Assembly: GCA_964477875.1 (NCBI GenBank)
Contig: CAYZFR010000001.1
Span: 1 to 62,111, forward strand
Source: an uncultured Myxococcales bacterium
GTDB lineage: Bacteria; Myxococcota; Kuafuiibacteriia; Kuafuiibacteriales; Kuafuiibacteriaceae
Direction of reading: 5' to 3'
DNA: 62,111 nucleotides
The position numbers and the translations under genes were made by a program. The notes under the pieces are model-generated. The model did not search any database. It saw nothing but the letters and a program-made list of their open reading frames with translations, and had not been told where the DNA came from. Positions 115 to 49,911 of this stretch are shown here, piece by piece. Every line of letters begins with the position of its first letter. The first letter of the stretch is position 1.

Positions 115-197
115 TGCCCGGGAGAGGACTTGAACCTCCACTGTGTTGCCACAAGCGGATTTTGAATCCGCCGCGTCTACCATTCCGCCACCCGGGC
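115..197 (-). tRNA. tRNA-Leu, anticodon CAA, type II with long variable arm
   Basis: Reverse complement reads GCCCGGG..GCGGA/TTCAAAA/TCCGC..long variable arm..GGAGG/TTCAAGT/CCTCT/CCCGGGC/A. It has a 7-bp acceptor stem, an anticodon loop with U33 and CAA, and a canonical T-loop. CCA is not encoded. Confidence 0.93.
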
Positions 198-22011: not shown

Positions 22012-24519
22012 TCAGCGGCCGCGGAGGGTCTGGGCGATGCGGAGGACGTCGGCGAGGACGCCGGCGGCGGTGACGGCGCCGCCGGCGCCGGCGCCCTGCA
22101 CGATGAGGGGATGCTCGGCGTAGCGGTCGGTGGTGAAGGCGACGAATGACTCCGTCGCTCGGAGCCGGGTGGCCGGGTGGTCGGCGGGGACGGCCATCGG
22201 GCCGACCTTCATGACCTTGTCGCCGTTGGCGGCCGCCCTCGGGTCGACGCGGGCCAAGTAGCGGAGCACGAGACCCTCCTTCTCGTAGGCGTCGAGCTGG
22301 GCGTCGAGCTCGGGCTGATAGGCCTGAAGCCCGGCGTAGAAGTCATCGAGCTCGGTCTGCTCCAAGATCCGCTCCGGCACCAAGGGCTCCAGCTCCACAT
22401 CCGACAGCTCGATCTGAAGACCGAGCTCCCGGGCCAAAATGATGGCCTTTCGGGCCGCGTCGAGGCCTGACAAGTCGTCCTGCGGCTGGGGCTCGGTATA
22501 GCCCAAGGCCTTCGCCTCTCGCACCGCCTCGTGGAGCGGCTTTCGCTGCATCATCTGCCAGGTCAGGTAGCCCAGGGTGCCGGAGAAGGAGCCCTCGATC
22601 AGCTGCACCCGGTCGCCGGTTCGGACGAGGTCCTTGAGGGTCTCGATGACCGGGAGGCTGGCCCCCACCGTGGTCTCGTACGCGTAGAAGCGGTGGTGGG
22701 CGCGGGCGCTCTCGATCAGCGCGTTGCGGCGCTGGACCTCGATGGTGAGGGGCTTCTTGTTCGCGGCCACCACGTGGATGCCCCGCTCGAAGGCCTGCTG
22801 GTACAGGTCCTCCAGGCCGCCGGCCGCCGTCACGTCCACCAGGATCGGGACCGGCAGCCGCCGAAGTCGGTCGAGCACCGCCGGGGTCACCGGTCCATGC
22901 GGCCCCAGCGGCGCCTCGGGCGCGCTGCTCAGTCGTCCCTCCCAGTCCGACGGCGGCAAGCCCTCGGGCTCGAAGGCGAGCCGGCGCTGGTCGGCCAGGC
23001 CCACCAGCCGCAGATTGATGTCGTGCTCGTCCCGAAGCACCCGGGCCTGAGAGGCGACCTGCTCCAGCAGCTCCGAGCCCACCGTGCCCTTGCCGAGGAC
23101 GAGCAGGCTCACCGTCTGGTGCGCGAAGTTGAAGGCGTCGTGGACCGCTCGCACCGCGGTGTTGGTCTCGTCGGCGTCGACGATGCAGCTGATCGAGCGG
23201 CTGCTCGCGCTCTGGCCAATGGTGCGAACGTTGACGCCCACCGCGCCCAGGGCCGCGAACATCCGGCCCGCTACGTTCACCGATTGACCCATGGCCTCCG
23301 CGACCAGGGTCAACAGCGTGGTCGGCGCCCAAACTTCCAGGGGCCGGATCTCCTTCGCCGCCAGCTCCGCCCGCAGCTCGAGCTCGATCGCGGCCTGGGC
23401 CTCGGCCGCCTGCTCCATGGGCACCACCACGGACAGCGCCTGGCCGTGGGCGCTCTGAGTCGACAGCCACACCGAGATCTCGCGCTGCTCCAGGCTCCGC
23501 TGCAGTCGCTCCGCCATCCGCGAGCGGGTGTCCAGGCGGCGCACCTGGATGTCGATCAGCGCCACATTCTCGAGCGAGGTGACCGAGGTCGGCTTGCCTG
23601 GATCCCGGTGGCCGGTCTCGTCGACGAGGGTGCCCTCCGCTTCGGGGGTCAAGGTGTTGCGGATCCGCAGCGGCACCCCCGCCTCGATGAGCGGGATCAT
23701 GGTCCGGGGATGGAAAATCTTGGCCCCGAAGGTCGCGAGCTCCAGGGCCTCCATGTAGCTGAGCCGAGACAGGGGATAGGCGTCGGGGACGATGGCGGGG
23801 TCGGCGGTCATCACCCCCGACACATCGGTCCAGATCGTCACCTCCTCGGCGCCGAGGCCCCGCGCGAGGAGGGTGGCGGTGTAGTCGGAGCCGTTGCGGC
23901 CCAAAGTCGTGGTCCGTCCGTCCGCGCTTCGGCCCAGATAGCCGGTGTGGACCGTCAGGGCGGAGCGCCATTCTTCGGCCTGGGCCTGGATGTTGCGCTC
24001 GGTAGCCGGCCAATCGACGTGGGCCAGCCCGAAGCGTGCGTCGGTCAACAGCCAGTCGCGGGCGTCGACGAATCGGGCCGGAAGGCCCTTGGCCTTCAAG
24101 AAGGCGGTCACGAGAAGGGCGCTGCTCCGCTCGCCGAAGGACTGGATCAAGTCCAGGGTCTGGGGCGTGTACTCCCGCAGCAGGCCGACGCCGTAGAGCA
24201 ACTTGCGCAGGTTGCCGTACAGAGCCTCCAGCTGGGTCAGCGTCTCACTCAGCTCGTGACCCTGCCCGAGCACCGACTCCGCGTTGCCGGTCACCAGCCG
24301 CTGCACCTGGTCGACGAGGGCGTTCGCCAGGTGGTCTTCGCCGTCGCCGGCTTTGGCCGCCGCCTCGATCAGCAGGTTGGTGGTCGGCCCCGCCGCCGAG
24401 ACGACGATGGCGGTGGGTCGAGGCGCCGCCTGGATGATCCCGACCACCCGGTGCACGCGCTCGGGGTCCTGCAAAGAGGAGCCACCGAACTTGAGGACGT
24501 GGGGACGCTCGACCGTCAC
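22012..24519 (-). CDS. thrA: bifunctional aspartokinase / homoserine dehydrogenase
   Basis: GTG start, then TVERPHVLKFGGSSL (aspartokinase N-terminus). ACT-like region in the middle. The homoserine dehydrogenase half has VLGKGTVGS (NAD fold) and a C-terminal catalytic domain. The GTG overlaps the metX stop as GTGA at 24516-24519. The rest of the 1162-aa ORF is read-through in frame. Confidence 0.9.
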   Translation of the reverse strand: MTVERPHVLKFGGSSLQDPERVHRVVGIIQAAPRPTAIVVSAAGPTTNLLIEAAAKAGDGEDHLANALVDQVQRLVTGNAESVLGQGHELSETLTQLEALYGNLRKLLYGVGLLREYTPQTLDLIQSFGERSSALLVTAFLKAKGLPARFVDARDWLLTDARFGLAHVDWPATERNIQAQAEEWRSALTVHTGYLGRSADGRTTTLGRNGSDYTATLLARGLGAEEVTIWTDVSGVMTADPAIVPDAYPLSRLSYMEALELATFGAKIFHPRTMIPLIEAGVPLRIRNTLTPEAEGTLVDETGHRDPGKPTSVTSLENVALIDIQVRRLDTRSRMAERLQRSLEQREISVWLSTQSAHGQALSVVVPMEQAAEAQAAIELELRAELAAKEIRPLEVWAPTTLLTLVAEAMGQSVNVAGRMFAALGAVGVNVRTIGQSASSRSISCIVDADETNTAVRAVHDAFNFAHQTVSLLVLGKGTVGSELLEQVASQARVLRDEHDINLRLVGLADQRRLAFEPEGLPPSDWEGRLSSAPEAPLGPHGPVTPAVLDRLRRLPVPILVDVTAAGGLEDLYQQAFERGIHVVAANKKPLTIEVQRRNALIESARAHHRFYAYETTVGASLPVIETLKDLVRTGDRVQLIEGSFSGTLGYLTWQMMQRKPLHEAVREAKALGYTEPQPQDDLSGLDAARKAIILARELGLQIELSDVELEPLVPERILEQTELDDFYAGLQAYQPELDAQLDAYEKEGLVLRYLARVDPRAAANGDKVMKVGPMAVPADHPATRLRATESFVAFTTDRYAEHPLIVQGAGAGGAVTAAGVLADVLRIAQTLRGR

Positions 24520-25616
24520 CCCTGGGCCTCTCGCAGGATGGCTTCCATTTGATCCCACTCGATCAAGAAGCCGTCGTGTCCGTGAAGCGAGCGGAGCTCG
24601 CGGTAGGCGCCGTCGGGTAGCTCCGCCGCCCACGCGCTCATGGGCGCGGCCGGGTAGAGCTGGTCGCTGTCGATCCCCACGAGGGTGGTTCGAGCACGGA
24701 CGCGGGATGGGGTCCAAACAGAGTCGCCCACTGATCGAGGCGGTGTGAAGACGTCGTGGTGATCCATCGCGGAGAGCTGAGCGAGGTAGGCGAGAGGGTC
24801 GAAGCGCGCCCGGAGCTTTTTTCCTTGGTGCTCCAGATAGGTCATGGCGCTGCCGGGGCGCGGAGGGATGGTGGGGCCATCGTGGCGAGCGGCGAGGCCG
24901 GCCGGGGCCCGGTAGGTCATGTGGGCGACCTGTCGCGCCAGCTCCAGACCGCGACCGGCGGCGGGGAAGGCAGGGTCCGCCAAGATGCTCATCCGCCCGA
25001 TGTGATTCCAGCCCTGGATCCAAGGGGTGCTCTTCGGGCAGCAGGCGATCAGCGCCGCTCGGGCGAAACGATCCGGGGCCAGCATGGTCAAGCACCAGCC
25101 GATCATGCCTCCGAGGGAGCCGCCGGTGACGAAGGCGATCTCGCCGAGGCCGAGGGCGTCCAGCCCTGCGAGGATCGCCCGGGCCTGGTCCCAAGTGCTG
25201 AGGGCGGCCGGGGTCCTGGGGTCGTGACTGAAGGCCCCCTTGCCGGTCGCGGCGTAGGGTGTATCGGCGCTCCGCGGGAACGCCGGGTCCACCGGCCCGA
25301 AGCTGCCGTAGCAGCTCCCGAGGTTGTTGAAGCAGAGGACGTTGGTACGCTCCGCGTCGAGCGCCCGGCCCGGCCCGACGAGGGGCCCCCACCAGTCGTC
25401 GACTTCGGGCGCGCCGGTCAGGGCGTGGACGACCAGGGCGGTGGGCGCGACCGAGGGCTCTTTCGCCGCGAGCCGTGCCTCGTCCGGTCCCGCCACCCAA
25501 GCGGCCAGCTCGTGGTCGGGGAGCACAGGGCCGCTCTCCAGCCCGAAGCCGGGGCAGCGCAAGGCAAGGCGTCGTCCCACTTCGTCGACGCGAGCAGGTC
25601 TTTGGGACCTTGGCAA
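24516..25616 (-). CDS. metX: homoserine O-acetyltransferase
   Basis: FGLESGPVL...LVVHALTG...NNLGSCYGS...VTGGSLGGM (nucleophile elbow)...GHDGFLIE. The TTG start at 25616 is uncertain. Confidence 0.88.
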   Translation of the reverse strand: MPRSQRPARVDEVGRRLALRCPGFGLESGPVLPDHELAAWVAGPDEARLAAKEPSVAPTALVVHALTGAPEVDDWWGPLVGPGRALDAERTNVLCFNNLGSCYGSFGPVDPAFPRSADTPYAATGKGAFSHDPRTPAALSTWDQARAILAGLDALGLGEIAFVTGGSLGGMIGWCLTMLAPDRFARAALIACCPKSTPWIQGWNHIGRMSILADPAFPAAGRGLELARQVAHMTYRAPAGLAARHDGPTIPPRPGSAMTYLEHQGKKLRARFDPLAYLAQLSAMDHHDVFTPPRSVGDSVWTPSRVRARTTLVGIDSDQLYPAAPMSAWAAELPDGAYRELRSLHGHDGFLIEWDQMEAILREAQG

Positions 25617-25625
25617 GTCGGTCGC

Positions 25626-27128
25626 TCAGCCGACCTTGGCGAAGAGATCGGCGAGGCTGTCGTCGGCGAGGTCGTGGACGCTTCGGACGTCGTCGCAGAA
25701 GCCGAGGCTGGACGGGTTGGCTTCGCCCACCGCGATGCCCTGGACGAAGAAGCGCATCCGGCGCCGGGCGGCGTCGACGTCCTCTACCAGCGGGCGGGAT
25801 ACGCTAGCTTCCCCGTCGGTGATGAAGACGACGTCGCCGCGGCGATAGGGCTTCTCGGTGAGGGCCTCCAAGGCTCGCCGGAGGGGCTCCTCGAAGCTCG
25901 TCCCGCCCCCTGGGAAGTGCTCGGCGAAGTTCGATACAGCCTCCATCGACACCTGGCTTCGGCCCGTGGCCCGAGGGGGCTTCGACAGCTCCACCTCCCA
26001 CAGCTCTTCGCCGCCGCTGAAGATCAGGCCCAGGCAGCGCCGCCGCTGGCGGCGCGCGATCTCGGCGAAGGTGAGGGCGACGGCCTTGGCCCAGATCTCG
26101 CGGGAGCCAGCCATCGAGCTGCTCCCGTCCACGCAGACGACCATGGGCCCGCTCTGCTTGGGGCCACGGAGCTCGTAGCGGAGGAGCTCGCTCTCGGCGA
26201 AGCGCCGCAGGAAGGCACGGTGGAGCTTGGAGCTGCTGCGCAGGCCGAGCAGTTCGCTGGGTAGGAGCCGGTCGAGCTCCCGGCCTCGAGAGACGTCGTG
26301 CAGGGTCTGAGGGGCCCGCTGGATCTTGTTGCGGCGCGCCTCGTTCGCCACCTCCTTGAAGGCGCCCAAGAGCCGGGCGAGGAGGCGCAGCTTCTTGGAG
26401 CGGGCCAGCTTTCGACCCAGCTCGGCTCGGGTGGCGGCGTCGGTCTTCTGGTCCTGGCCGCTACCGATCCCGAAGGCCGCCATCGCTTCGTCGACGTCGG
26501 CCTGTCCGCTCTCCAGCGACGCCAGAGCCCCCGACATCGCGTGGTCGAAGCTGACCGGCAGGTCGTCGGCCGACTTCTTCTGTTCGCCTCGCTTTCGCTT
26601 CAAGTCCTGGCGGAGACGGCGCTGGTCCTGATCCAGACTTCGCTTCAGATCGCTCTTGGTTTCCTCGGACCAGGGCATCTCGTCCAGATGGGTCTTCTCG
26701 GCGTCGAGGCGCTCGAGCTTCGCCTCGTCGTCTTTGGCGTCCATGCCCACCACCAGCTCGCTCGCCACGACGGTCTCTCGAGAGCTCAGGGCGTCGGCGA
26801 TGAGACCTGCCAGCGGTCCCAGCACCTCTATCGAGCGCCGGGCGTCGAGGGCGGTGTGAGAGCGGAGCGCCTCCAGCTTCGGATCGTCCCGAAGGGAGCG
26901 GACGATGCGGCGATTCAGCAGAACCGAGGCGTCCAGCTCCTTCTCCAAGCGCACGCGGAAGGTCAGCTTGTAGAGGAGGGCGAAGACGTCCATCAGCAGA
27001 GCGTCGGGATGAGGAAGGAGGTGGCCGAGTCGCTCCCGGGCCGCCTCCAGCCCGGTGGCGTCGGGCAAGAGCGATGCGAACTGATCGCGGTCGAAGCCGT
27101 CGTGCTCTACCGTGAAGGTGGCGCTCAA
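25626..27128 (-). CDS. ViaA-like VWA-domain protein (partner of the MoxR AAA+ ATPase)
   Basis: 500 aa. A long helical N-terminal region is followed by a C-terminal VWA domain with MIDAS VCVDGSSSM...ITDGEA. The TTG start overlaps the upstream stop as TTGA. Confidence 0.85.
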   Translation of the reverse strand: MSATFTVEHDGFDRDQFASLLPDATGLEAARERLGHLLPHPDALLMDVFALLYKLTFRVRLEKELDASVLLNRRIVRSLRDDPKLEALRSHTALDARRSIEVLGPLAGLIADALSSRETVVASELVVGMDAKDDEAKLERLDAEKTHLDEMPWSEETKSDLKRSLDQDQRRLRQDLKRKRGEQKKSADDLPVSFDHAMSGALASLESGQADVDEAMAAFGIGSGQDQKTDAATRAELGRKLARSKKLRLLARLLGAFKEVANEARRNKIQRAPQTLHDVSRGRELDRLLPSELLGLRSSSKLHRAFLRRFAESELLRYELRGPKQSGPMVVCVDGSSSMAGSREIWAKAVALTFAEIARRQRRRCLGLIFSGGEELWEVELSKPPRATGRSQVSMEAVSNFAEHFPGGGTSFEEPLRRALEALTEKPYRRGDVVFITDGEASVSRPLVEDVDAARRRMRFFVQGIAVGEANPSSLGFCDDVRSVHDLADDSLADLFAKVG

Positions 27129-28246
27129 TTCGCCGCCCCCAGCAGGCTATCCTGCATCGACCGAAGCTCCGACTCCAGCTGGGTGAGCAAGCCCGGGCTT
27201 CGGCCCTCGCCCTCGGCCCGCTCGCGGAGCTGAGCGAGGCGTTCGCCGAGCTGGGCGAGCTTGGTGTGCGCCTCGAGGGCCGCCCGGCCCTTGCTGTCGG
27301 GGTCGGGCCAGGCCTGGAGCGCGTAGGCGAAGATCTCCTTGGCCTGGGTCTGGATCTTCTTCGCCTCGGACTCGAGGCCGGTCGCGACCTGGGCCAGCGC
27401 CGCCTCGACCTTGGGGATGTCTTCGGGGTCGGTCCACAGCACCGCCTGCAGCCACGTCAAGTCGCTGGCGTCGACAGCGTCCCGGCCCTCCAGCAACGCG
27501 GCCGCACGCAGCACCGCGAGGCAGCTGCGGAATCGGCGGTCCGAGGGCGTGACCCCCTCCTTGAAGAGGGTTCGCCGGAGCACGCGCAGGTCGCCGAGCA
27601 CCGTGTCGGGGACCTGGATCTCGGCCATGCGCCGCCGTAGCGCGGCGAGGTCGTCCGGGGACAAGGTGCTCTTCACCGGCGCTGGATCCGAGAGGCTCAG
27701 CAGCTTGGAGAAGCCCGCGTCGTCGACGTAGCCGACCTGGAAGCGAAGGAGAAAGCGGTCGTACAGCGCCCGAAGCTCGTCTTCTTCCGGCAGCTCGTTG
27801 GATGCGGCGACCACTGTCTCCAACGGCGCTTCGACGAGCTTGGTGCCTTGGTGAAAGCGGCGCTCGTTCATCAGGGTGAGCAGCGCGTTCAAGATGGCGC
27901 TGTTCGCCTTGAAGACCTCGTCCAGAAAGGCGATCTCGGCCGAGGGGAGCTTGTGCTCGAGCAGTCGCTCGTAGCGCCCCTCCTCCAGCGCCGGAAGATC
28001 GATGGGGCCAAAGATCTCCTCCGGCGTCGTGAACTTGGTGAGCAGCCACTCGAAGTACCGGGCCTGACCGAGGTGGGCGCAGAGCCGGCGGGCCAGCATG
28101 GACTTGGCTGTGCCCGGTGGACCGAGGAGGAGCACGTGCTGACCGCTGAGAAGCGCGATGAGCAGCCCATCGATCTCCTGGTCGCGGTCGATGAAAGCCT
28201 CGCGAAGCTCTCGGCGGACCTGCTCCAAGGCGTCCTGCGACGACAT
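27125..28246 (-). CDS. RavA-like MoxR-family AAA+ ATPase
   Basis: MSSQDALEQVRRELREAFIDRDQEIDGLLIALLSGQHVLLLGPPGTAKS (Walker A)...AFLDEV (Walker B)...LNALLTLMNERRF...VAASNELPE...ALYDRF. It is collinear with E. coli RavA as I recall it, but shorter, with no LARA-like tail. Only the last 373 aa of the 846-aa ORF are real. Confidence 0.9.
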   Translation of the reverse strand: MSSQDALEQVRRELREAFIDRDQEIDGLLIALLSGQHVLLLGPPGTAKSMLARRLCAHLGQARYFEWLLTKFTTPEEIFGPIDLPALEEGRYERLLEHKLPSAEIAFLDEVFKANSAILNALLTLMNERRFHQGTKLVEAPLETVVAASNELPEEDELRALYDRFLLRFQVGYVDDAGFSKLLSLSDPAPVKSTLSPDDLAALRRRMAEIQVPDTVLGDLRVLRRTLFKEGVTPSDRRFRSCLAVLRAAALLEGRDAVDASDLTWLQAVLWTDPEDIPKVEAALAQVATGLESEAKKIQTQAKEIFAYALQAWPDPDSKGRAALEAHTKLAQLGERLAQLRERAEGEGRSPGLLTQLESELRSMQDSLLGAAN

Positions 28247-28257
28247 AGGATGGAAGC

Positions 28258-28887
28258 CTATCCTTTGGAGCGTTCGAAGTGAACGACATCGATGAGGACG
28301 GTGGCGGCGAAGGCGAGGGCTTTCATCTCGGGCGTGGACAGCTGTCCGAGCTCGACGCCGAAGTTGTCGGCGTCGGTGAACATCTCGGTGCCGAGCCCGC
28401 TCCATCGCTTTCGGATACGGCCGACGACGTTGCCCTGGTCCTGCAGCTCGAAGGTCCAAGGCTTGAAGAAGGGGCCAAAGATCTCCAACTCGTGGCCCTG
28501 CGCGCTCTTGACGGCGTAGAGGCGGCGGAACCAGCTCCATCGACGGGTGATGATGCCCAGCCCCCGGCCCTCGCCGTCCTTCACCCGCAGCTCGTGGAAG
28601 ATGAAGCGAAAAGGACGGTGCAGATCGAGTAGAACTCTGCCGGTCCCGGTCTCGGTGATCTGGACGTGGAACGGCCGGGTGGGGCCCAGAAACATGCGCT
28701 TGAGGAAAGCGGTCAAACCTTCGTCCTTCTCCACCGCCACCATTACCGGTTGACCCGTCTGATCGAAAACCTCGTAGCGATTCCGCATCTCGAAGGAGAG
28801 CAGGATCTCGGTCCAGTTCTTCCGCTGGCGGACGGTGAGCTGGTCGAAGTGGCTGAAGGGGCGGGCGAGCTCGGACACGCTCCGCAT
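28258..28887 (-). CDS. phospholipid scramblase (PLSCR, PF03803) family homolog
   Basis: 209 aa. [28 protein letters not shown]...[18 protein letters not shown] parallels the human PLSCR1 C-terminal core as I remember it ([28 protein letters not shown]...MKAVMIGACFLIDFMFFE). Confidence 0.85.
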   Translation of the reverse strand: [209 protein letters not shown]

Positions 28888-28942
28888 CCGATGTCATGAT
28901 CGGGTTGCAGACAAGGGGGCCCTGGTCCATGGAGGGCGCCTG

Positions 28943-29812
28943 TTGGGAGAGCTGGCGGCCACGGCCGCGGCCCTGACCTGGGCCGTCGCCTCGATCCTGT
29001 TCGCTCGCCTCGGCAAGAGCGTCTCGCCGGTCGTCCTCAACTTCGCGAAGTGCGCCCTTGGCGGCCTGGGGCTGGTTCTGACCCTGGCCGTCGTCGAGTC
29101 CCGGGTGTGGCCCATCGGTCTGAGCGGAGCGGACTGGGGCTGGCTCGCCGCTTCGGCCGTCCTGGGGCTCAGCTGGGGAGATACCGCCTTCTTCCAGGCT
29201 CTGAATCGCCTCGGCCCTAGACGCGCTCTGCTTTTCTGGGCCCTGGCGCCGCCCCTCACCGCCGGTCTGGGCGCCATCTTCCTGGGTGAAGCGATCAGCC
29301 TTCGCATGGCGCTCGGGATCGTGGTCACCATGGCCGGCGTGACCTGGGTGGTGGCCGAACGCAGCCCCGACGGCCGGGTCGATCCCAGGCTGTGGTCGGG
29401 GGTTCTGTTTGGGGTAGGTGCGGCGTCCGGGCAGGCGCTGGGCTCGATCTTCGTGAAGAAGGGTGGGCTCGGAATCTCGGCTCTGGAGGTTTCGGCCGTT
29501 CGTCTCGTCCTCGGAAGCCTCGCGCTGGCCGTCCAGGTCGGGGCGGCGGGGGCGTGGCGCGAGCTCGGGCGCCTCGCCGCCCCGGTCACCGGTCGGGACG
29601 TGGTGGTCGGGACCTTCATCGGCACCTACCTCGGGATCTGGCTTTCGGTCTTCGCGCTCCAGCACACCTACGCTGGCATCGCCGCCACCTTGCAGTCGAC
29701 GAGTCCGCTCTTCGTCCTCCCCCTGGCGGCGCTGACCGGAGAGCGGATCAGTCTGCGGGCGGTGCTCGGCGCTTGCATCGCCGTCGCTGGCGTGGGGCTG
29801 TTGTTGGTGTGA
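28943..29812 (+). CDS. EamA/DMT-family transporter
   Basis: About ten hydrophobic helices with two EamA-like halves (AAALTWAVASILFARLG..., ALQHTYAGIAATLQSTSPLF). The 5' end is uncertain. The ATG at 28835 would overlap the scramblase gene, so TTG at 28943 is my guess. Confidence 0.7.
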   Translation: MGELAATAAALTWAVASILFARLGKSVSPVVLNFAKCALGGLGLVLTLAVVESRVWPIGLSGADWGWLAASAVLGLSWGDTAFFQALNRLGPRRALLFWALAPPLTAGLGAIFLGEAISLRMALGIVVTMAGVTWVVAERSPDGRVDPRLWSGVLFGVGAASGQALGSIFVKKGGLGISALEVSAVRLVLGSLALAVQVGAAGAWRELGRLAAPVTGRDVVVGTFIGTYLGIWLSVFALQHTYAGIAATLQSTSPLFVLPLAALTGERISLRAVLGACIAVAGVGLLLV

Positions 29813-31930: not shown

Positions 31931-34189
31931 TCACAGCAGCTCCAAATAGGCCTCGAGGCGGGCTCGCTCGTCTTCGCTCAAGGCGTGGAGCTGGCCGTGC
32001 TCTCCGGAAGCGGTCCCGAGCTCCAGGACGCGGTCGATGGCGTCGTCGTGGGTGGCGAGGACCCTCCCGTCCTCGGTGACCGAATAGCCGCCGCCGGCCG
32101 AATGCAGCAGCGGGTAGTTGTTCCACAGACCGACCAGCGAGGGTGCAGGCAGTCGATAAAAGTCGTCGTCCTGCATCTCGGACCGGAGCGGCAGGGCGAC
32201 CGCGGTTCCGACGTCGTAGAGACGTCGCCGGGTCGCCTTGTCCTGGTCGGTCGTGAACTGCGGCGAGGGGTGACAACGCGCGCAGTCTCCTTTGTCTTCG
32301 AACAGCGCTCGTCCTTCGACGAGGAGGTCGGAGCTGGCCTCGGCCAGGCCGGGGTTGGGGGGCTGAACGAGGGTCTCCTGGAAGGCTCCCAGCGCCGCGA
32401 TTTCGGTCCCGGTCGGGTCGGGATTGTGAAAGCGGTTGCGGGCCAGGACGAACGCAGCCGTCGCATGGAGCGAGGGGATCAGCGCGGGCGTGAAGTAGGG
32501 CGGGGACTCTCGGGCCGACAGAATGGTGGGCGTCCGGTAGATGTGCATCGGATCGCCCTTGGTGAAGAGTACGCCAGAGCTGTGGCCCTGGTAGTGGCAG
32601 GCGTCGCAGCTCATTCGCGTGTTCCCGAGGTCGGTGTAGAAGAGGACTTCGCCGAAGCGGCGTCGGCTCTGGGTTCGTTGGGCGGGCACGAGGCCGAAGG
32701 TCTCCAGGATCAGCGCACCCTCCCGCACCGCGCTCGTATCGGCGCGATGCACGACGCCGGTGAATCGGTTGAGGACGAACAGCGTTTCGCCGGCGAGAGC
32801 GAGGTCTACCGGACCGGAGTGGATCGAGGTCCCGTTCCTGCCCTCTACGCCAAAGTCTCCGGCCGGCCGCACGAGGCGGGTGCTGGGTGGAGGCTCGACC
32901 GGCGTCGCCAGCAGCAGCGCCTCTCGGGCTGCGCCGTCGCTCTCGGCGAGGCGCCGGGCGTCCAAGGCCACCACTCGGCCTGCCGCCAGATCGGCGGCAA
33001 AGAGGATGTCGCGCTCGCGGTCGAGGGCCAGGGCCTGGGGCACCCCCCGGAGGATCGAGACGTGCCGGACGATGCGCCGGGCCTTCAGGTCGTAGACCCC
33101 GACCCCGCCGTTCATGCTGACCTCCATTCGGTCGGGGTTGGGACCGATGACGGGCCCGACGTCGGCGATGAAGGCCACCCCGTGCTCGATGTCGAGGACC
33201 AGATCCCGCGGGGCGGAGCTCCCCATCACGTAGCTCTGGTACGGTGCGGTGTGGCCGCCGATGATGGTCGTGCGGCGGTCGGCGGCGATGCGTGCCTCGG
33301 CGGGGACGTCGAAGTCCTGCTCCCCTTCGATGCGAACGTGAGCCAAGTCGGTCGAAGCTTCGTTCCCGACCACGAGGACGCCGTCTTCGACCGCGAGCGG
33401 CCCCGGATCGACGCCGACCTTCCCCTCGGCGACGAGCTTCTCCCCTAGCAGATCCACGACGTGGACGGCGTCGGTACGCCGGTTGCTGAGGTAGGCGAAG
33501 TTTCCGTCCACGGTGACCCGGGTGCTGCCCGGCGGGACCTCGATCCTCCGGGGCGAGGCTTCGGGCTCGTCCATCCGAAGCAGACGCAGCTCGGGGGCCC
33601 AACGGTGGGCCACCACCAGCCAAGGCGCCTGGCCCGGGGGGAGCCAAGTGGCCAGATCGCAGGGACCGTCGGAGACCTCGACGCTGGTCCACTCGGCGCC
33701 GCGCCCCACGTGGACCTGATCGGTGTGGGGGGAGGCGACGAAGACGGCGGTGCCCCCGGGATGAGCCGCGAGGGCCGTCCCGACGCCGTACGCGGCGTCG
33801 TTGACCACCCACAGAGGGGCGGTGCCGCCCGCCTTGTGGCCGTCCTCGTCCACCAAGTGGGCTTGGAACTCGGCCACGGAGAGCTGGGCTGGGACCGGGA
33901 TGTCTTTCACCACCGCGATCGCGAGTCGGTCGTCGACGAACCGAAGAGGGAAGCGAAGGCGCGTTTGCTTTCGCCGGAGCTCCAGCTGCAGCCCAGGGGT
34001 GAGCCCTTTGCCGACGACCCGGAGCGGGTAGGCCGTCTGATTCGAGATGTGCCGGGGGCTCGCGTGGAGCAGCTCCGTCTCGTCTAGGCGCGCCTCGGGC
34101 TCGGGCTCGTTCCTTCCCCGGGGGCGGGCCAGGTAGAGGACGAGGACGGACACCCCCACGGCGACGAAGATCAGCGCGCGTCGTCGCAT
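31931..34189 (-). CDS. membrane-anchored beta-propeller-like domain fused to a di-haem cytochrome c peroxidase/MauG-like domain
   Basis: 752 aa with an N-terminal hydrophobic anchor. The middle region has repeated strand-rich YVTN-like segments. The C-terminus has two CxxCH motifs (CDACH, CARCH) with CCP-like spacing and RTPTILS / LPAPSLVGLW blocks. Confidence 0.75.
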   Translation of the reverse strand: MRRRALIFVAVGVSVLVLYLARPRGRNEPEPEARLDETELLHASPRHISNQTAYPLRVVGKGLTPGLQLELRRKQTRLRFPLRFVDDRLAIAVVKDIPVPAQLSVAEFQAHLVDEDGHKAGGTAPLWVVNDAAYGVGTALAAHPGGTAVFVASPHTDQVHVGRGAEWTSVEVSDGPCDLATWLPPGQAPWLVVAHRWAPELRLLRMDEPEASPRRIEVPPGSTRVTVDGNFAYLSNRRTDAVHVVDLLGEKLVAEGKVGVDPGPLAVEDGVLVVGNEASTDLAHVRIEGEQDFDVPAEARIAADRRTTIIGGHTAPYQSYVMGSSAPRDLVLDIEHGVAFIADVGPVIGPNPDRMEVSMNGGVGVYDLKARRIVRHVSILRGVPQALALDRERDILFAADLAAGRVVALDARRLAESDGAAREALLLATPVEPPPSTRLVRPAGDFGVEGRNGTSIHSGPVDLALAGETLFVLNRFTGVVHRADTSAVREGALILETFGLVPAQRTQSRRRFGEVLFYTDLGNTRMSCDACHYQGHSSGVLFTKGDPMHIYRTPTILSARESPPYFTPALIPSLHATAAFVLARNRFHNPDPTGTEIAALGAFQETLVQPPNPGLAEASSDLLVEGRALFEDKGDCARCHPSPQFTTDQDKATRRRLYDVGTAVALPLRSEMQDDDFYRLPAPSLVGLWNNYPLLHSAGGGYSVTEDGRVLATHDDAIDRVLELGTASGEHGQLHALSEDERARLEAYLELL

Positions 34190-49812: not shown

Positions 49813-49838
49813 TCGTCCAAGCCCTCTGAATCGTTGAG

Positions 49839-49911
<73 letters not shown>

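Follow-up and report, generated by a model that had tools for sequence, protein, structure and literature searches.

A myxobacterial phospholipid scramblase homolog and its RavA/ViaA-type neighbours: probably two separate units joined by inherited gene order

When a phospholipid scramblase (PLSCR) homolog stands directly ahead of a MoxR ATPase and a VWA protein in a bacterial genome, do the three genes encode one machine or do they merely share a place on the chromosome? The question is raised by a locus in the window, as we call the whole stretch of 62,111 nucleotides from an uncultured Myxococcales bacterium that was analysed. Three minus-strand ORFs run head to tail there: the scramblase-homolog gene scr (28258..28887, 209 aa, ATG start), the MoxR ATPase gene (27125..28246, 373 aa, ATG start) and the VWA-protein gene (25626..27128, 500 aa, TTG start). 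A minus-strand spacer of 11 nt (28247..28257, gcttccatcct) separates the scr stop from the MoxR start, and the MoxR stop overlaps the VWA start by 4 nt on the same strand (27125..27128, aaTTGAgc). These coordinates and junctions agree with those in an earlier note on this DNA, which had described three same-strand genes with an 11-nt gap and a 4-nt TTGA overlap. A divergent EamA/DMT transporter gene (28943..29812, plus strand) lies 55 nt from the scr start. Downstream on the minus strand follow a gene for a MetX-like acyltransferase (24516-25526), whose start is 99 nt past the VWA stop, and one for an aspartokinase/homoserine dehydrogenase (ThrA, 22012-24519). A consensus scan of positions 24300-29300 returned no promoters, and terminator-like sites at chance level. 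The arrangement of scr, MoxR and VWA is compatible with an operon, and because the same-strand gap measures just 11 nt, the three genes are probably co-transcribed in the window, possibly with metX-thrA too.

The homology signals for all three genes are strong and are not chance matches. The earlier note had proposed a profile check against scramblase, AAA_5 and VWA models, and all three proteins matched. The 209-aa protein, recognised there as similar to the PLSCR core, contains the peptides that were quoted and matches the Scramblase family PF03803 over profile positions 17-221 of 221 (E = 4.4e-45, 154.2 bits against a cutoff of 25.4). Its match to PF04525 is weak or faint, so PF03803 is the significant one. 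Many of its homologs also carry a precomputed PF04525 match and are named YxjI by JGI. No NCBIfam model matches the protein. Its AF2 model (pLDDT 85.6, pTM 0.84) has 12 strands and a helix at residues 186-208, and is predicted to form a Tubby-like beta-barrel that encloses this C-terminal helix. Foldseek, which had also been suggested as a check, matched the model to the Tubby-like fold of TULP1 (3c5n/2fim) and At5g01750 (1zxu) with a probability of 1.0 each (TMt 0.64 for 1zxu). Since a phmmer search of PDB sequences with the same protein gave no matches even at E <= 10, the relationship to Tubby and 1zxu is one reached by fold comparison only.

The DADNFG motif is kept at residues 172-177 of this barrel protein, as is the GPxRPF motif. 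The Ca2+-binding segment of human PLSCR1 comprises residues 273-284 (PMC7150476). Compared with PLSCR1 D273-D284, residues 172-183 retain Asp at positions 1 and 3, while the Asp at position 12 is Leu, in line with the earlier remark that the start of the calcium loop is kept and its last acidic ligand replaced. PMC2639001 questions whether such a segment is truly EF-hand-like. There, Bateman et al. also argue that the C-terminal helix of PLSCR1 is the core of a barrel. The barrel protein begins about ten residues ahead of the Pfam core, without a proline-rich N-terminus, ends four residues beyond the C-terminal helix and contains no Cys. The hydrophobic tail had been cited in describing a scramblase/Tubby-like membrane protein; in our model it is predicted to be a buried core helix and not a membrane anchor. 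With this helix predicted to occupy the barrel interior, the protein would more plausibly bind ligands or lipids as a soluble or peripheral barrel than act as a transmembrane scramblase.

In the MoxR ATPase, Walker A (GPPGTAKS) is at residue 42 and Walker B (FLDEV) at 107, and the AAA lid at 216-283 is followed by a helical tail of about 80 aa. Its Pfam matches are PF20030 (6e-64), AAA_5 (9e-31) and AAA_lid_8 (1.5e-17). The LARA domain (LARA_dom) and ATPase_RavA_C (PF20265 and PF12592) are both present in E. coli RavA and both absent from the window ATPase by Pfam, which bears out its description as RavA-like but without a LARA-like tail. It is 43% identical to residues 18-304 of E. coli RavA, the AAA+ module, and scores 239 bits with the NCBIfam RavA equivalog model (NF010054), for which the cutoff is 681. 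By sequence we would place it in the RavA-type MoxR subfamily in the broad sense, and not as a RavA equivalog.

The VWA protein likewise has the ViaA layout that had been claimed for it. In its AF2 model, residues 1-311 are all-alpha and an alpha/beta VWA domain follows; confidence is high for about 1-220 and low for the 220-325 linker. VWA_2 matches residues 329-440 (1.4e-9), and the MIDAS is complete (D334-x-S336-x-S338, with DGSSS at 334, T410 and D438), its residues being invariant in 21 homologs. Foldseek matches to the model were VWA domains only, among them NorQD (9qhe), with no solved counterpart for the helical N-terminal domain. Identity to ViaA residues 184-421, the linker and VWA domain, is 29%, and the score with the NCBIfam ViaA equivalog model (NF008230) is 85.5 bits against a cutoff of 500. 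The C-terminus is acidic, ending ...HDLADDSLADLFAKVG, where ViaA ends ...GMRSRLLRRWRR; the Arg-rich C-terminal amphipathic lipid-binding helix of ViaA is absent. The protein is therefore ViaA-like in layout, in the broad sense, and is not a ViaA equivalog.

If the three proteins worked together as a rule, their genes should be found together, and the earlier note had made conservation of the neighbourhood the measure of its proposal. PLSCR-family proteins are broadly distributed in bacteria, with 486 clusters found in Myxococcota, Planctomycetota, Fibrobacterota and other phyla. Of the scramblase-homolog loci, 31 extend at least 1.5 kb downstream, and in only three of these (L001, L002 and L036) does a MoxR and VWA pair adjoin the homolog. 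The other 28 lack the pair, and no MoxR or VWA gene was detected elsewhere among these loci even at a tblastn E-value <= 0.05. Homologs with 57-65% identity occur in unrelated contexts (L125, L126, L119/L120, L121 and L122). One follows an alpha/beta-hydrolase-fold gene with Abhydrolase Pfam matches and precedes a gene that is not MoxR (L125), one shares 4 nt with an overlapping Lar_N gene (L126), one is carried on an integrase-flanked island (L119/L120) and one adjoins succinate dehydrogenase genes (L121).

Seen from the VWA side, the picture is more uniform. In all 49 VWA-family loci with at least 2 kb of upstream DNA, MoxR lies directly upstream of the VWA gene, the pair usually overlapping, and none of the 49 has a scramblase homolog nearby. 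MoxR and VWA are the sole genes common to the VWA-family loci that were compared. Two of these loci (L037 and L038) have unrelated flanks around MoxR-VWA; in L037, the gene ahead of MoxR encodes 278 aa, bears no resemblance to a scramblase gene and gave no Pfam match. Tight or overlapping junctions between MoxR and VWA recur in L036, L037, L038 and L127. Across the loci compared, the triad is restricted to one lineage.

Within that lineage, the triad is part of a longer collinear block. The order g290-EamA-scr-MoxR-VWA-MetX-ThrA (7-8 genes) is shared by the window, L001, L002 and L036, plus L127/L128. EamA belongs to the block in all triad loci, and MetX and ThrA are kept beside MoxR-VWA in L001, L002, L036 and L124, all of the same lineage. 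In L124, a VWA gene whose product is 53% identical is followed by MetX-ThrA, and the sequence ends inside MoxR. Independent triad genomes are few, representing four lineages. Divergence across the block is even: scr is 62-64% identical, MoxR 64%, VWA 57-58%, ThrA 69% and EamA 53-61%. As all block genes have diverged to a similar extent, the adjacency of scr, MoxR and VWA is no better conserved than that of their housekeeping neighbours. A point against separate units is that this adjacency survives to about 60% protein identity.

Considering these distributions, we suggest, with a probability of roughly 65%, that the locus combines two independent units, brought side by side by a gene order that one lineage has inherited. 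The first would be a free-standing two-gene chaperone module of the RavA/ViaA type; its ATPase keeps both Walker motifs intact, and its VWA partner has an intact MIDAS and a conserved helical N-terminal domain. If the module works like E. coli RavA-ViaA and other pairs of this class, the VWA protein may dock onto the ATPase by its helical N-terminus and grip an acidic residue of a client with its MIDAS site. The client, which would not be encoded at a fixed place beside the pair, would then be remodelled or matured through ATP hydrolysis. The second unit would be the scramblase homolog, a small, basic, Cys-free member of the PLSCR/LOR Tubby-like barrel superfamily. Co-transcription of the three genes would, in our judgement, reflect local gene order and not a dedicated three-part machine. 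Because the adjacency is confined to one narrow lineage that keeps its whole surrounding order, nothing in it shows that the three form a dedicated lipid-scrambling machine.

Possible, though doubtful, is a clade-specific recruitment, in which the PLSCR-like barrel became a client or cofactor of the RavA/ViaA-like pair; the MIDAS would bind the barrel and the ATPase would remodel, load or release it at the membrane. MoxR-VWA pairs are often encoded next to their clients, as in CbbQO, NorQD and CoxDE, and it is because of this habit and the 11-nt gap between scr and MoxR on one strand that we grant a client relationship in this clade some probability. The adjacency is kept in four lineages down to about 57-64% identity, and the barrel protein is strongly basic (pI 9.7) with an inserted helix at residues 58-70, only weakly amphipathic (muH 0.34), that could touch anionic lipid. 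Against this, the adjacency is conserved no better than EamA, MetX and ThrA in the block, and the scr-MoxR gap, again 11 nt in L001, is wider in L036 and L127 (47-55 nt). L125, which nests within the triad clade in a neighbour-joining tree without support values, appears to break the scr-MoxR link inside the clade. Moreover, the MoxR/VWA pair can be aligned with non-triad homologs over its full length, C-terminal tail included, and has no clade-specific features. Unlikely, in our estimate, is a fuller version confined to this single Myxococcota clade: that a LARA-less RavA/ViaA-type pair came to share an operon with a PLSCR-like Tubby barrel, which it employs as its client or as an adaptor to the membrane.

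The two-unit reading fares better still against a general, undescribed system, with the triad as its hallmark, in which an ATP-gated scramblase would redistribute envelope lipids; this we regard as highly improbable. The earlier note had favoured an ATP-controlled module acting on a scramblase/Tubby-like membrane protein, which it would load, gate or remodel; the note's domain identifications were correct, but its own measure, a conserved triad neighbourhood, goes against it. With the triad missing from 28 of the 31 scramblase loci and from every one of the 49 VWA-family loci, such a system is largely refuted by distribution. The bridge to the membrane had been sought in the binding of anionic lipids by E. 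coli RavA-ViaA, which has been mapped to the LARA domain and the Arg-rich C-terminal ViaA helix (PMC9489729), and this bridge falls because both elements are absent here. In addition, the C-terminal helix is the predicted core of the barrel, there is no Cys for acylation, and one Ca-motif position carries a replacement. Whether the PLSCR proteins themselves act as scramblases in vivo is disputed (PMC2639001, PMC3590573).

Hardly credible, and rejected, is a conflict or defence system of the Kaur-Aravind type, a MoxR-vWA ternary system in which the barrel protein would be the effector. In its favour, PF20030, the top Pfam match of the ATPase, bears the title 'MoxR domain in the MoxR-vWA-beta-propeller ternary systems', and one scramblase homolog lies on the integrase-flanked island. 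Against it, E. coli RavA matches PF20030 equally well. VMAP, iSTAND, FtsH and beta-propeller, the components by which PMC7159879 defines such systems, are absent from the three proteins and from 10 kb on either side, and the vWA domain carries no fused effector. The flanking genes are housekeeping genes, and PADLOC gave a single marginal match for the three proteins (MoxR to mad8, E = 0.0033, 15 bits).

To our knowledge, bacterial PLSCR-family proteins are widespread and none has an assigned function, and we know of no client for the LARA-less RavA/ViaA-like pairs, which are common. Our literature searches for scramblase with MoxR, for bacterial PF03803 and for YxjI/LURP-one/Tubby-like proteins retrieved no study that deals with the triad or with PLSCR homologs from bacteria. 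A real functional link would thus connect two orphan families, and a clade-specific client or adaptor would provide the first genetic handle on bacterial scramblase homologs and on RavA-ViaA targets outside enterobacteria. Our results indicate that the link between scr and the MoxR/VWA pair is a local gene-order feature, which makes the locus at most a cheap experimental entry point in one clade; it offers no evidence of a new lipid system of the envelope. This negative outcome has a use of its own: neither the PF20030 name nor the lipid binding known from E. coli RavA-ViaA should be transferred to such homologs.

With the MoxR-vWA ternary conflict systems (Kaur et al. 2020, PMC7159879) the locus shares the MoxR-vWA core and the PF20030 model, but it lacks their third component, effector fusions and variability and has a housekeeping context. 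LURP-one-related/DUF567 proteins (PF04525; At5g01750, 1zxu; COG 'YxjI') are alike in superfamily and fold, whereas the significant match of the barrel protein is to PF03803. With the eukaryotic phospholipid scramblases PLSCR1-5 (PF03803) the barrel protein shares the whole conserved core, the predicted 12-stranded Tubby-like barrel, the hydrophobic C-terminal core helix and both sequence motifs; it differs from them in having neither the proline-rich N-terminus nor the Cys-rich palmitoylation motif, in the Leu at the last acidic position and in ending so soon after the helix. Compared with E. coli RavA-ViaA, the window ATPase is without the LARA and RavA C-terminal domains (373 against 498 aa), the VWA protein has an acidic C-terminus in place of the Arg-rich lipid-binding helix, and both score far below the equivalog cutoffs. 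The known E. coli partners LdcI, Nuo and Frd are not implied for the window pair. What the two pairs have in common is the AAA+ module, the layout of the VWA partner with its related linker and VWA domain, and an ATPase gene that lies directly upstream of, and overlaps, the gene for that partner.

Three genes occupy the minus strand of the window (G+C ~67%), in the order 28887 to 25626: a scramblase homolog (gene 1, 28258-28887, 209 aa, ATG start), a MoxR ATPase (gene 2, 27125-28246, 373 aa, ATG start) and a VWA protein (gene 3, 25626-27128, 500 aa, TTG start). Their coordinates match the stored gene calls of identical public contigs and agree with the same-strand arrangement described in the earlier note, with an 11-nt spacer between genes 1 and 2 and a 4-nt overlap between genes 2 and 3. 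As the first gap is 11 nt and 99 nt separate the VWA gene from metX, an acyltransferase gene, this triad is probably co-transcribed; promoter and terminator scans of the region were uninformative on transcription. The genes for an EamA transporter and the scramblase homolog are divergent, with starts 55 nt apart (28888-28942). This is very short for two promoters; one annotated start could be misplaced, or a compact control region may serve both genes. Elsewhere in the window, a 752-aa ORF (31931-34189, minus strand) has no Pfam match and a 72% identical counterpart in the homologous locus L001. It neighbours a GMC oxidoreductase gene and a gluconate-2-dehydrogenase subunit-3-like gene, and its product may act with this dehydrogenase as an uncharacterised partner or third subunit. 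Rfam and ARAGORN identified tRNA-Leu(CAA) (115-197, minus strand) and tRNA-Ala(GGC) (49838-49911, minus strand), and nothing else over the window.

Gene 1 is a phospholipid scramblase homolog, as had been proposed: it matched Pfam PF03803 (Scramblase) over nearly the entire profile (E=4.4e-45), with no match in NCBIfam or PADLOC. An AlphaFold2 model based on an alignment of 52 homologs was confident (pLDDT 85.6, pTM 0.84) and consisted of 12 strands and a C-terminal helix (residues 186-208). The anticipated Tubby-like relationship was recovered by Foldseek against the PDB, where human TULP1 (3c5n, 2fim) and Arabidopsis At5g01750 (1zxu) were each hit with probability 1.0, and the predicted fold is a Tubby-like barrel. 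Such a barrel has been proposed for PLSCR1, with the supposed transmembrane helix as its buried core (Bateman et al., PMC2639001). The gene 1 protein is basic (pI 9.7), and its sequence lacks cysteine, a proline-rich N-terminus and any strong transmembrane signal. Compared with PLSCR1 segment 273-284, Asp1 and Asp3 are kept whereas the last Asp is a Leu, which agrees with the earlier note on the sequence of this putative calcium loop (start retained, final acidic position replaced).

Gene 2 contains Walker A and Walker B motifs, AAA_5 and AAA_lid_8, and shares 43% identity with E. coli RavA over the AAA+ module. Two further domains that the same scan detected in E. coli RavA, LARA and the RavA C-terminal domain, are missing from gene 2, consistent with its description as a RavA-like MoxR ATPase without LARA. 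Its top Pfam match (27125-28246) is PF20030, 'MoxR-vWA-beta-propeller ternary systems'. Since canonical E. coli RavA matches PF20030 equally (E=1.5e-56), the family name has no system-level meaning for gene 2 and is misleading when annotation is transferred. Gene 3 has the ViaA layout ascribed to it, with a region modelled as all-alpha (residues 1-311; confidence high over ~1-220 and low in the 220-325 linker) and a VWA domain (residues 329-440) whose complete MIDAS (D334, S336, S338, T410, D438) is invariant in 21 homologs. Identity to ViaA residues 184-421 is 29%. The family is conserved over its full length of ~505 aa, and 716 clusters were found, Haliangium among them.

A metagenome scan with the VWA family alignment confirmed 367 relatives, the best 80 of which supplied loci. 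Among these, 49 loci had at least 2 kb upstream; MoxR lay directly upstream of the VWA gene in 49/49, and 0/49 contained a scramblase homolog (tblastn E<=1e-3). Only MoxR and VWA were common across these loci from the best 80 of 367. The flanks of the pair were unrelated in L037 and L038, and L124 (VWA 53% identical) again carried MoxR-VWA-MetX-ThrA (ThrA, aspartokinase/homoserine dehydrogenase), its contig ending within MoxR. With MoxR always upstream, nothing else in common and no scramblase, the MoxR-VWA pair is a self-contained two-gene module. Its catalytic and MIDAS motifs are intact, and the pairing of both genes is obligatory.

For the scramblase homolog, 32 loci came from scanning a single genome for each species and seven from exact-protein look-ups; 31 had at least 1.5 kb downstream. 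MoxR and VWA were present in three of these, L001 (82% identical), L002 (62%) and L036 (64%), while the other 28 showed no similarity to either anywhere (tblastn E<=0.05). All three belong to one collinear block, g290-EamA-scr-MoxR-VWA-MetX-ThrA (scr, the scramblase homolog), common to the window, L001, L002, L036 and L127/L128, the last being the contig of L002 and a near-identical MAG. Identities within the block (scr 62-64%, MoxR 64%, VWA 57-58%, ThrA 69%, EamA 53-61%, MetX 51-53%) show that all its genes are similarly diverged. The adjacency of the triad is conserved exactly as that of its unrelated housekeeping neighbours is, so it carries no independent functional information.

In a neighbour-joining tree (no support values), the triad copies formed one clade with L125 inside it. 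The L125 homolog (64-65% identical; tblastn 65%, homolog table 64%) has an alpha/beta-hydrolase-fold gene (Abhydrolase Pfam matches) upstream, and the gene downstream of it is unrelated to MoxR. Other homologs with similar identities adjoin succinate dehydrogenase genes (L121, 59%) or an alcohol dehydrogenase gene (L122, 58%), and all-against-all clustering of flanking ORFs revealed no gene common to every scramblase locus. In L126 (6001-7865), the homolog (61%) and a Lar_N (PF09861) gene overlap by 4 nt, followed by a penicillin amidase gene. Tight junctions to unrelated genes thus exist in this family, a control against over-reading short intergenic gaps.

P0011, a 60% identical homolog with entries in 46 collection blocks, is found within a ~9-kb stretch flanked by two tyrosine-integrase genes (L119 1708-9976, L120 606-10427). 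The six small ORFs upstream had no Pfam or PHROG match, the downstream cargo differs between the two loci, and the stretch may be a mobile island with a PLSCR-like gene. In L031 (6001-6457, on a 2.6-Mb contig), the match falls in two pieces, covering residues 7-98 and 151-209 of the query; this copy probably has an internal deletion or is a pseudogene.

We favour, with a probability of about 0.65, the reading that lineage-specific gene order has placed a free-standing RavA/ViaA-type chaperone pair beside a PLSCR-related, uncharacterised barrel protein. By homology, the pair would carry out ATP-driven remodelling of a client protein. MoxR-VWA genes are often neighbours of their clients, which makes a clade-specific client relationship with the barrel protein plausible; with triad adjacency as its sole support, we consider it unlikely, and if true it would offer a useful way into two orphan families. 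The earlier note described the genes accurately, but its general ATP-gated scramblase system defined by the triad is effectively excluded by the distribution (3/31 scramblase loci; 0/49 VWA loci among the best 80 of 367). Least credible is a defence system, effectively excluded by its missing parts: a MoxR-vWA ternary system, as defined by Kaur et al. (PMC7159879), needs a VMAP, iSTAND, FtsH or beta-propeller component and shows variable effectors, none of these occurs within +/-10 kb of the triad, and PADLOC gave one marginal match only for the triad proteins.

Compared with what is known, both families are already in public annotation ('phospholipid scramblase-related protein', 'VWA domain-containing protein'), scramblase/DUF567 proteins in eubacteria were noted by Bateman et al. 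(PMC2639001), and our literature search found no study connecting a scramblase with MoxR. At this locus, known kinds of gene are juxtaposed in a lineage-restricted way. The membrane link carried over from E. coli RavA-ViaA loses its footing here, as an ATPase without LARA and an acidic VWA C-terminus leave that argument without sequence support at the window. Felix et al. mapped phosphatidylglycerol binding by RavA to LARA, the domain absent from the window ATPase, and phosphatidic acid/cardiolipin binding by ViaA to an Arg-rich amphipathic helix (471-483), with lipid binding abolished in ViaA(1-472) and in R476E/R479E (PMC9489729). Whereas ViaA ends in ...GMRSRLLRRWRR, the window VWA protein has the acidic C-terminus ...HDLADDSLADLFAKVG.
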